From: an uncultured Chthonomonadaceae bacterium
GTDB lineage: Bacteria > Armatimonadota > Chthonomonadetes > Chthonomonadales > Chthonomonadaceae
Assembly: GCA_963835065.1 (NCBI GenBank)
Contig: CAWIEK010000019.1
Location: 1 to 64,000 of the forward strand
Length of the DNA stretch: 64,000 nt
Reading direction: 5' to 3'
Positions 1 to 14,362 of the stretch are shown in pieces. Position 1 is the first letter of the stretch, and each line of letters opens with the position of its first letter. Position numbers and translations under genes: made by a program. Under the pieces are notes generated by a model. The model was given only the letters and a program-made list of their open reading frames with translations. It was not told the origin of the DNA and ran no database searches.

Positions 1-52
1 CGCACCGCCCCCTCGCAAAGGAGGTATTCTTCGCATTTGAAACTACGTCGCC
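1..52 (-). ncRNA. tRNA-like element, anticodon TGC (Ala-type), 3' end truncated by window edge
   Basis: Reverse complement reads GGCGACG TA GTTTC AAATGCGA AGAAT A CCTCC TTTGCGA GGGGG CGGT GCG..; same body as the two neighbouring elements. Confidence 0.6.
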
Positions 53-163
53 GGCAACGCGGATGCAAACCTACCAGGCGAACCGTCACCTGTAGGAGGG
101 GCCTTAAAAGTTCGTAGTTCCTGCATTCCTATCAACTACGAACTATCAACTATCAACTGCTCA

Positions 164-235
164 AGGCGGCGAATGGGCCTCGAACCCACACCTCAGATTT
201 GCAATCTGTGTTCTTCGCGTTTAAACTATGCCGCC
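164..235 (-). ncRNA. Non-canonical tRNA-like element, anticodon GCA (Cys-type)
   Basis: Cloverleaf GGCGGCA..CAGA TTGCAAA TCTG..GTGGG TTCGAGG CCCAT..GCCGCC T; U discriminator; D-loop lacks GG and T-loop is atypical. Confidence 0.7.
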
Positions 236-258
236 ACGAACGCGCTTCTCGAAAGAAT

Positions 259-333
259 TGGCGACGGCGGGCCTCGAACCCACACCTTCTCCCTGAAAAG
301 GAGATGTTTCTTCGCGTTTAAAACTACGTCGCC
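259..333 (-). ncRNA. Non-canonical tRNA-like element, anticodon TTC (Glu-type)
   Basis: Perfect 7-bp acceptor GGCGACG/CGTCGCC, anticodon arm TCTCC TTTTCAG GGAGA, T arm GTGGG TTCGAGG CCCGC. Confidence 0.75.
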
Positions 334-353: not shown

Positions 354-1355
354 CTACGCCGATTGCAGCGCGGACGTTGCCGCCCGGGTTTGCCGCCACA
401 CGCGCCACTGTTCCAGCACGGCTGCCGCCAGAATAATGAAGGCCACGAACAGGTTGGATTGTTCGGGCGGGCGATGCGTTAAAATCAGGGCGTTGCGCAG
501 CAGGGCGATCAATAATGCGCCCAATGCCGCCCCGATCAGGCTGCCGTCTCCCCCCGTGATGCGGATGCCGCCGACCACGCAGGCCGCAATCACGTTCAAT
601 TCCGCGCCCTCGCCGACAACCGATTGCGTGGTGTTGTTGAAGCCCATAGCGATCAAACCCGCCAGTCCCGCGCACAGCCCCGACAGCAGATACGTCCACC
701 GCTTCACGCTGCCCACCGCAATGCCCGACAGCCGCGCCGACTGCTCCCCGCCGCCAATGGCAAGGGTCCACCGCCCCAGCCGCGTTTGCTGTGACACGAT
801 TGCGAACACAACGACCACAATCACAAGCAACAGCGTGGGTGTCCAGCCCGTGCCCAAAAAGCGGAACGCATCGGGAAACGGACCGAAATTGCGGGCGTGG
901 GTGAGCAGACTCGTGCCGTGCCGAAACAGCAGCAGGGTGGCAAGCGTTGTCAGGATGGGCGGCAATTTGCGGTACGTGACCAGCGCCCCGTTCAAACTGC
1001 CCGCCAGCGCGCCCGCGCCCAATCCGCACACCATGCAAAGCGGCCACGCCCAGCCCGCCGCCAGGCACAGGGCGGTGATGCAGCTTGACAGCGCGACAAT
1101 CGCCCCGACCGACAAATCCAGCCCGCCGCCCAGAATCACCAGCCCCTCGCCACACGCCATGATGCCGATGTACGCGGCTTCCTGCCCGACGATGCTCAGA
1201 TTACTGCCGCCCCGAAAAGAAGGCACAAACGCGCCCATCCAGCCGCACAGCAGCGCGATCAGCAGCAGTGTAGGCAGTTCGCGGGGCAGAAATCGGGTAA
1301 ACGCTTTGAAAGCAGGTTTGGGCGCGCTGTCGGAAACAGCAATCGGGTTCGGCAT
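354..1355 (-). CDS. Sugar ABC transporter permease (RbsC/BPD_transp_2 family)
   Basis: GGLDLSVGA, PPILTTLAT, AIGGGEQSARLSGI and ELNVIAACVVGG motifs; multi-TM. Confidence 0.92.
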   Translation of the reverse strand: MPNPIAVSDSAPKPAFKAFTRFLPRELPTLLLIALLCGWMGAFVPSFRGGSNLSIVGQEAAYIGIMACGEGLVILGGGLDLSVGAIVALSSCITALCLAAGWAWPLCMVCGLGAGALAGSLNGALVTYRKLPPILTTLATLLLFRHGTSLLTHARNFGPFPDAFRFLGTGWTPTLLLVIVVVVFAIVSQQTRLGRWTLAIGGGEQSARLSGIAVGSVKRWTYLLSGLCAGLAGLIAMGFNNTTQSVVGEGAELNVIAACVVGGIRITGGDGSLIGAALGALLIALLRNALILTHRPPEQSNLFVAFIILAAAVLEQWRVWRQTRAATSALQSA

Positions 1356-14290: not shown

Positions 14291-14362
14291 AGCCGACAAG
14301 CGGATTCGAACCGCTGACCTGCTGTTTACGAAACAGCTGCTCTACCACTGAGCCATGTCGGC
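14291..14362 (-). tRNA. tRNA-Thr (CGT)
   Basis: Canonical cloverleaf GCCGACATGGCTCAGTGGTAGAGC..TTCGTAA..GGTTCGAATCC. Confidence 0.97.

Follow-up and report, generated by a model that had tools for sequence, protein, structure and literature searches.

The window analysed here, 64,000 nucleotides at the start of contig C19 of genome G000, opens with an array of three tRNA-like genes on the minus strand, which are paralogues of one gene and carry different anticodons. The explanation that we prefer, tentatively and with somewhat less than even confidence, is that an accessory tRNA gene was duplicated in tandem and the anticodon arms of its copies were remodelled, giving a small back-up set in which charging and decoding are predicted for the Glu(UUC) copy. 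The array is laid out as follows:

1..52, minus strand: 5' part of copy 3, anticodon TGC (Ala), consisting of the 5' acceptor strand, the D arm and the anticodon arm
107..161, no strand assigned: dispersed repeat within the spacer that divides copy 2 from copy 3, outside the family, defined by genome matches
164..235, minus strand: copy 2, tRNA-like gene, anticodon GCA (Cys), from ARAGORN and Rfam RF00005
259..333, minus strand: copy 1, tRNA-like gene, anticodon TTC (Glu), from ARAGORN and Rfam RF00005
334..353, minus strand: 20-nt leader between the permease stop codon (354-356) and copy 1, in which no promoter-like site was found
354..1355, minus strand: gene for an ABC-transporter permease (PF02653), immediately upstream of the array

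ARAGORN calls a tRNA-Glu(TTC) at 259-333 and a tRNA-Cys(GCA) at 164-235, which score 51.4 and 34.4 bits with RF00005 (gathering score 29); with the same model, the three copies of the congener G002 obtain 49.5, 44.1 and 39.6 bits (cut-off 29). Both complete copies of the window fold into a cloverleaf (z of -2.5 for TTC and -2.0 for GCA), and the TGC copy, whose 3' end is cut, scores 36.3 bits with a model built from complete copies. The initial annotation of this DNA had described three minus-strand paralogues (TTC, GCA and TGC) with differing anticodon arms, and the sequence, ARAGORN and RF00005 bear this out. On re-reading, the shared features were also as claimed, i.e., a start GGCG(A/G)C, a D-loop AAA(C/T)GCGAA without GG and a T arm GTGGG-TTCGAGG-CCC; likewise, the array begins 20 nt past the permease stop codon and runs off the window edge, which is the contig start. 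The array copies have a 7/5 acceptor/T domain and a variable region of 4 nt.

Copy 1 has a 7-bp acceptor, a 5-bp anticodon stem, a 4-nt variable region, G59-G60 and A73. Copy 2 shows two defects: its anticodon stem has only 4 bp (15-nt arm), and its 3' acceptor strand is longer by one base; the X4 metagenome contig spans 165-236 with two differing letters and no gaps, and reproduces the extra acceptor base. Copy 3 has C3 in place of G3, confirming what had been annotated, and G37, and its anticodon arm and D-stem are nearest to those of the TTC copies. Because contig C19 begins at window position 1, the truncation of copy 3 is an assembly end. Its missing part was sought at the other contig ends of G000 and none carries it, and a 30-nt flank present in run X1 was absent from G000 on search. 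The X1 metagenome contig (3189 nt) covers window positions 1-158 and beyond, with a complete TGC copy, and contains no additional piece aligning with the G002 array past the third gene, so that the array likely stops at three copies in that strain. The spacer repeat at 107..161 has 108 genome matches of at least 40 nt in G000, and contig depth is very high. Elsewhere in the window, ARAGORN finds an ordinary tRNA-Thr(CGT) at 14291-14362 on the minus strand.

The invariant G18-G19 is absent from the array, where the D-loop reads AAAYGCGAA in all six copies, and the missing G18 together with a G at position 60 sets the array copies apart from other host tRNAs. Three of the 75 ARAGORN calls of G000 have no GG at nucleotides 14-24, two of them being the array copies and the third a false call that arises from a repeat. 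One D-loop G could still face C56 in the copies without GG. A kissing contact of D-loop with T-loop (CGAA with UUCG) was considered and then abandoned, since other T-loops occur in array tRNAs that share this D-loop. The lack of an encoded CCA, to which the initial annotation drew attention, is true of both complete copies, but it carries no information since CCA is rare in the host genes (7 of the 75 calls encode it).

The D-loop AAYGCGAA was also found in unrelated organisms, in five tRNA genes (two Asp, one Val, one Ile2 and one of Lys type). Both Asp genes are long-array members, the Lys-type gene also stands in an array, and the Ile2 gene reaches 66 bits (Rfam). GG-less tRNA genes made up three of seven matches in the metagenome search and two of 12 in the genome search. 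These occurrences suggest that the GG-less loop may be a rare D-loop variant of accessory tRNAs and not the sign of a non-translational role. An array tRNA-Asp (L046; body identity 0.82, with a loop one base off the TTC loop) may indicate where the body came from, and counts as a lead only, since that gene was picked by its D-loop.

When the anticodon arm is removed, the bodies of the five complete copies (two from G000 and three from G002) are 0.82-0.95 identical, and the array bodies share at most 0.74 (median about 0.6) with the 58 other short tRNA calls of G000. This result demonstrates that the array copies are paralogues of one gene, and agrees with the annotated picture of one body, duplicated and diversified. 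The same annotation took the body to be Cys-like, which found no support: for no copy do the three nearest bodies include a host tRNA-Cys(GCA), although G2-C71 and C3-G70 are Cys determinants. The window GCA body is 0.95 identical to the G002 CAT body and 0.86 to the G002 GCA body. All five distinct anticodon arms present a 7-nt loop with Y32, U33 and R37. The TTC loop equals that of the host housekeeping tRNA-Glu(TTC) letter for letter, the GCA loop of G002 is the housekeeping Cys loop, and the CAT loop of G002 is that of one housekeeping Met tRNA. The YTGCAAA loop of the GCA copies is framed by two different stems.

The TTC anticodon arm plus variable region (283-304, minus strand) lies within two mismatches of a genome-wide palindromic repeat found at 19 other places in G000, a likeness that no other genuine tRNA among 76 queries shows. 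Derivation of the TTC arm from this dispersed palindrome was considered and is indistinguishable from chance.

The identity elements differ from copy to copy. Both TTC copies carry U34, U35, C36, A37, G1-C72, U11-A24 and no residue 47, as do the E. coli Glu determinants. Their discriminator is A73 in G000 and G73 in G002, and this variation fits a GluRS that does not need N73, which is not required among the E. coli tRNA-Glu determinants given in PMC9976931. The TTC copies have G46 and G2-C71, not A46 and U2-A71, and the same holds for the host housekeeping tRNA-Glu; at the U13-G22:A46 triple, the 13-22 pairing varies with the register of an extra D-stem base and position 46 is the said G. The window GCA copy, which like copy 1 ends without CCA, carries the Cys set GCA, U73, G2-C71 and C3-G70, i.e., the tRNA-Cys determinants given in Table 1 of PMC9976931. 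The G002 GCA copy has C73 and the G002 CAT copy has a broken stem and G73, two oddities that are unsure because stray single bases are common in the G002 assembly (35 frameshifting indels, most of them added bases, in a coding alignment of 11.7 kb). In the TGC copy, C3 takes the place needed for the Ala identity pair G3-U70. G51-C63 is present in all six aligned genes. We predict that only the Glu copy, and perhaps the Cys copy, would work as a tRNA.

The array copies are not the only normal tRNAs of this lineage for their anticodons, a possibility that the initial annotation had left to be checked. Among the 75 ARAGORN calls of G000, the anticodons TTC (Glu), GCA (Cys) and TGC (Ala) are all represented by housekeeping genes, which makes the array copies extras. 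A 16-gene long array (C49:430274-432286) holds another Glu(TTC) and another Cys(GCA), so that two tRNA-Glu(TTC) and two tRNA-Cys(GCA) are already in the host and a third gives little obvious gain. This long array is common to three congeners, with 16 genes in G000, 16 in G002 (L136) and 22 in G001 (L172), and a tyrosine-recombinase-like gene, as judged by reading its translation, follows it in G000.

Other unusual tRNA genes were observed in these genomes. G000 has an odd tRNA-like gene at C49:587868-587941 (minus strand), with the D-loop AAACGGAA, a possible extra acceptor pair and a 3-bp stem with a 9-nt loop that replaces the anticodon arm. This gene is 96% identical in G002, where it is preceded by a second GG-less gene, with GAC (L165:83-156 and 180-253); by translation reading, its neighbours in G000 are a dual-specificity phosphatase-like gene and SDR-like and leucine-rich-repeat-like genes. 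Its body is the nearest to several array copies (0.70-0.74). G002 also has a tRNA gene with a CUA (amber) anticodon and a short variable region (L164:79-150, G002:C11:90528-90599; RF00005 53.8 bits), of which no counterpart was found in G000 and which is possibly a natural amber suppressor. Finally, an atypical pair of Tyr and Ala genes is kept at C49:61388-61671 of G000 and L166 of G002, the body of the Ala gene being 96% identical and its anticodon TGC (G000) or CGC (G002).

A DNA search of 61 genomes found the array only in G000 and its congener G002, where CAT, GCA and TTC copies stand behind the same permease; the cluster is therefore kept in a relative, which answers another check raised initially. 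The congener G001 (97% complete) has no array, and there the permease is followed by a second permease. A covariance model made from the five complete copies scores those copies at 80-93 bits and found nothing else above 54 bits in the 61 genomes; in 150 phylum genomes outside G000 nothing exceeded 62 bits, and within the 24 loci inspected the best matches were ordinary tRNAs. A pattern search allowing two mismatches in 301 phylum genomes gave six matches outside G000, none of them with the family body. The exact pattern, searched in 185,579 species genomes with the own genome left out, gave 12 matches, i.e., one array, two other tRNAs and nine non-tRNAs, and the one array belongs to an uncultured Chthonomonadaceae (phylum Armatimonadota). 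The metagenome pattern search gave seven matches, three tRNA genes and four non-tRNAs. Three pattern searches of viral contigs yielded 0, 2 and 2 matches, all four non-tRNA, a phage collection yielded partial matches only (E of 0.04 or worse) and a plasmid collection none.

The order of the copies is TTC-GCA-TGC in G000 and X1, and CAT-GCA-TTC in G002. The TTC copy adjoins the permease in the X1 and X2 contigs, as in the window; in X4 the permease is joined directly to the GCA copy and TTC lies on a separate contig, and in X6 a copy with a 15-nt arm is followed by TTC. The metagenome contigs thus hold two or three copies in varying order with a TTC copy in every case, and this demonstrates a turnover of copy number and order in the array. 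The array has this permease (PF02653) as its direct upstream neighbour not only in G000 and G002 but also in contigs of runs X1, X2, X4 and X6.

A pair of abutting degenerate tRNA-like genes, with a GGA loop and then a CCA loop, was observed in G034 (L123:2288-2429, minus strand), with, by translation reading, a vWA-like gene region on one side and a trmFO-like gene on the other, and the body of the second gene (CCA loop) resembles that of the array. The look-alike at L123:2288-2358 (minus strand) agrees with the array copies in its first 16 bases and in the 3' strand of its acceptor. Its kinship is unproven, as its body identity of 0.75-0.78 falls within the 0.68-0.79 of unrelated tRNAs picked by the model. 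The look-alike and its neighbour had a single 37-nt match in 401 phylum genomes and none in viral contigs.

The TTC copies of G000 and G002 are 0.92-0.93 identical, with five substitutions and one indel, and the three substitutions that fall in stems all keep pairing. At fourfold sites of seven coding blocks, the two genomes agree in 1336 of 1847 cases (72%), compared with which the binomial P is 6e-6 for the TTC copies and 0.018 for the GCA pair. No likeness was evident on comparison of the array spacers of the two genomes. Among the housekeeping tRNAs of G002, 33 of 39 are at least 0.96 identical to those of G000, and the median for the 16 long-array tRNAs is about 0.92. The TTC identity equals this median and lies below the housekeeping genes, so that the TTC gene evolves in the manner of an accessory tRNA of an array. 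Pairs were counted in a six-gene alignment of the five complete copies and the G034 look-alike, in which 123 of 126 cells are paired and nine of 21 pairs show two-sided changes, four of them outside the anticodon stem (5-68, 7-66, 49-65 and 50-64); the shuffle control overstates this pairing signal, because the six genes are related and the alignment was fitted to a model. These data demonstrate conservation in the congener and covariation in the stems.

The order of events that we propose begins with an accessory tRNA gene that would have come to lie behind the permease in an organism ancestral to G000 and G002, been duplicated in tandem and then changed the anticodon arms of its copies. The permease gene is probably the source of read-through transcription into the array: promoter-like sites upstream of the G000 array number 1 against 1.3 expected and a terminator scan also remained at chance level. 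Downstream of the G002 array, there are three promoter-like sites against 0.8 expected, two of them antisense, and the next gene is a BT1/MFS transporter. The transcripts would then be trimmed and receive CCA enzymatically, as expected for most host tRNAs. The TTC copy would receive Glu from the only type of GluRS present, adding redundancy for Glu(UUC), and cysteinylation of the window GCA copy would be weak and its contribution marginal. The TGC copy, without G3-U70, and the G002 CAT copy would not be properly charged and would be passing side products of duplication and of drift in the anticodon. In the Anabaena long array, according to the charging results summarised in PMC8421152, 23 of 26 tRNAs were charged under translational stress and some genes were pseudogenes. 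Several observations speak against the back-up reading: promoter-like sites at chance level upstream in G000, the missing G18 and the G at position 60, the defects of the GCA and CAT copies, the Glu(TTC) and Cys(GCA) genes that the host already has, and the presence of the array in only 2 of the 61 relatives and not in the congener G001.

The copies might instead be uncharged tRNA mimics, in which a constant scaffold displays Glu, Cys, Met and Ala housekeeping loops and soaks up anticodon nucleases or anticodon-reading proteins. Anticodon nucleases target Cys and Glu tRNAs. They also target tRNA-fMet, as described in PMC10264068. The canonical loops fit this explanation together with an acceptor identity that does not follow the anticodon (no G3-U70 with TGC, G73 with CAT and C73 in the G002 GCA copy), and copy number and order change fast, as in conflict genes. 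However, no toxin, defence or RNA-repair gene was found beside the array, the downstream neighbour in G000 lying beyond the assembly, and the best-conserved copy (TTC) retains Glu charging determinants that a pure decoy would not need; quick turnover is equally compatible with relaxed selection. We consider decoys unlikely, though with an appreciable probability. The copies may also be mis-decoding tRNAs, another reading of the initial annotation.

A low probability that still has to be taken into account goes to neutral or nearly neutral relics, i.e., a foreign tRNA gene behind the permease that was duplicated and is decaying, its copies being held alike by gene conversion. Such relics would be in agreement with the narrow range (2 of 61 relatives, and one array among the 12 pattern matches in 185,579 genomes), with the defects of three of the five complete copies, with the dispersed repeat in one spacer, and with the window GCA body being nearer to the CAT than to the GCA body of G002. 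Nevertheless, the TTC copy is conserved far above fourfold sites with pairing kept at its three stem substitutions, two different stems surround the YTGCAAA loop, and conversion alone does not yield the two-sided changes at 5-68, 7-66, 49-65 and 50-64.

We have also considered, as a rather unlikely idea, that the array may be a chromosomal cassette with one scaffold and exchangeable arms bearing Glu, Cys, Met or Ala loops, renewed by duplication, whose products would act as decoys or nuclease-resistant stand-ins against tRNA-targeting toxins.

Very unlikely, in our judgement, is a dedicated role in non-ribosomal aminoacyl transfer, which the initial annotation had listed; such tRNAs might serve the aminoacylation of lipids or the cell wall, the maturation of RiPPs or the synthesis of tetrapyrroles. 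The non-proteinogenic tRNA-Gly of Staphylococcus has lost the GG of its D-loop like the array copies. We searched for partner genes in G000, G001, G002 and G034, whose incompleteness limits all absences. A FemAB-like gene is found in G000 and G002 and not in G001 or G034, but it lies on another contig among unrelated genes and four genomes are too few for a correlation; a MprF-type gene is present in all four genomes, unlinked to the array. Each of the four genomes has one CysRS, and no LanB/PEARL-type domain was matched in any of them, a control search being equally silent. No dedicated GluRS paralogue was found either: a second GluRS match in G000, considered as a dedicated enzyme, turned out to be a near-identical tandem repeat with a frameshift. 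In that region (C41:112277-116692), the GluRS gene and two neighbours are tandemly repeated with one copy frameshifted, by duplication or as an assembly artefact. The conserved G51-C63 means that the EF-Tu determinant at 51-63 is kept, and several anticodons per acceptor would ill suit a single transferase.

The chances are slighter still for tRNA-shaped signals for 3'-end processing or stability of the permease mRNA, with incidental anticodons. The array lies on the same strand within about 25 nt of the permease stop in G000, G002, X4 and X6, the partner permease of the operon of G001 has moved away or was not found, and the palindromic repeat likeness of the TTC arm and variable region would also fit. 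Yet one copy would do, canonical loops in five arms would be unneeded, and the repeat likeness, seen in 1 of 76 queries, may be chance.

Y-RNA or YrlA-like partners of Ro60 or RtcB, also put forward initially, share a tRNA-like fold with the array, but this proposal is already largely refuted and can practically be set aside. RF02553 has no match at the array in G000 or G002, the cloverleaf is unpermuted, and TROVE matches occur in three of the four genomes with none in G000 (92% complete); the array-less G001 has TROVE, RtcB and the only YrlA-like match beside TROVE. That match (L126:2688-2788, just downstream of the TROVE gene) has 38.7 bits, below the cut-off of 69. RtcB was found in three of the four genomes, not in G002, and in G000 it lies on a contig other than that of the array. 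The RtcB matches come in two pieces in G000 (C7:25776-28023, about 1 kb between) and in G001 (C2:4975199-4978432, about 2 kb). Overall, no TROVE/Ro60, RtcB, MprF, Fem or synthetase gene was found linked to the array.

Compared with known systems, the array most resembles supernumerary tRNA arrays (L-arrays, short accretive A-arrays and the Anabaena trn operon), as characterised in PMC8421152: the genes are extra, on the same strand, closely spaced and CCA-less, with isodecoder redundancy, conservation below housekeeping genes and some pseudogenes, and odd D-loops are also found in such arrays. It is supernumerary to a full housekeeping set like an L-array, but it is neither long nor horizontally spread nor made of unrelated isotypes, the features of L-arrays in that text; here two or three paralogues of one body are vertical in one genus behind a permease, and the 16-gene long array of the host is separate. 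Alloacceptor tRNA remolding, as outlined in PMC4783518 and PMC3923123 and, for a bacterial anticodon switch, in PMC7661048, also involves duplication followed by anticodon change, leaving genes with different anticodons as each other's closest relatives. In the array, by contrast, the ancestral housekeeping genes persist, the difference extends over the entire arm and not just the anticodon, the body departs from the canonical form, and a bacterium has one body with four or more anticodons.

The non-proteinogenic tRNA-Gly genes of Staphylococcus are likewise extra genes that depart from the consensus, and according to PMC9976931 they lose EF-Tu determinants at 49-65 and 51-63, whereas the array copies keep G51-C63, retain the TTC of the T-loop, have several anticodons and have no linked transferase. 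YrlA and other bacterial Y RNAs (RF02553) have tRNA-like D and T arms, but the array gives no match to that model, keeps the ordinary cloverleaf order including the anticodon arm and has no adjoining TROVE gene. The selC* tRNA-Cys and allo-tRNAs, in the description given in PMC7609411, are non-canonical extra tRNAs too, some with GCA and a bulge; they have 8/4 or 9/3 domains and a long variable arm, in contrast to the 7/5 domain and 4-nt region of the array, and selC* has its own CysRS whereas the array host has a single one. A literature search, whose scope lay outside the array lists in the supplements of PMC8421152, returned no description of this array or of such a family in Armatimonadota.

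The narrow range limits the weight of the finding, and the function is predicted from sequence. These genomes show bacterial tRNA remolding while it is under way: across two species and several strains, one body carries four or more anticodons. The array provides a natural test of how far the anticodon and the discriminator alone set Glu and Cys identity, and another of whether translation in bacteria works with a D-loop that has no G18, a loop that recurs in unrelated array tRNAs. If the copies were uncharged decoys, they would represent a new anti-toxin device.
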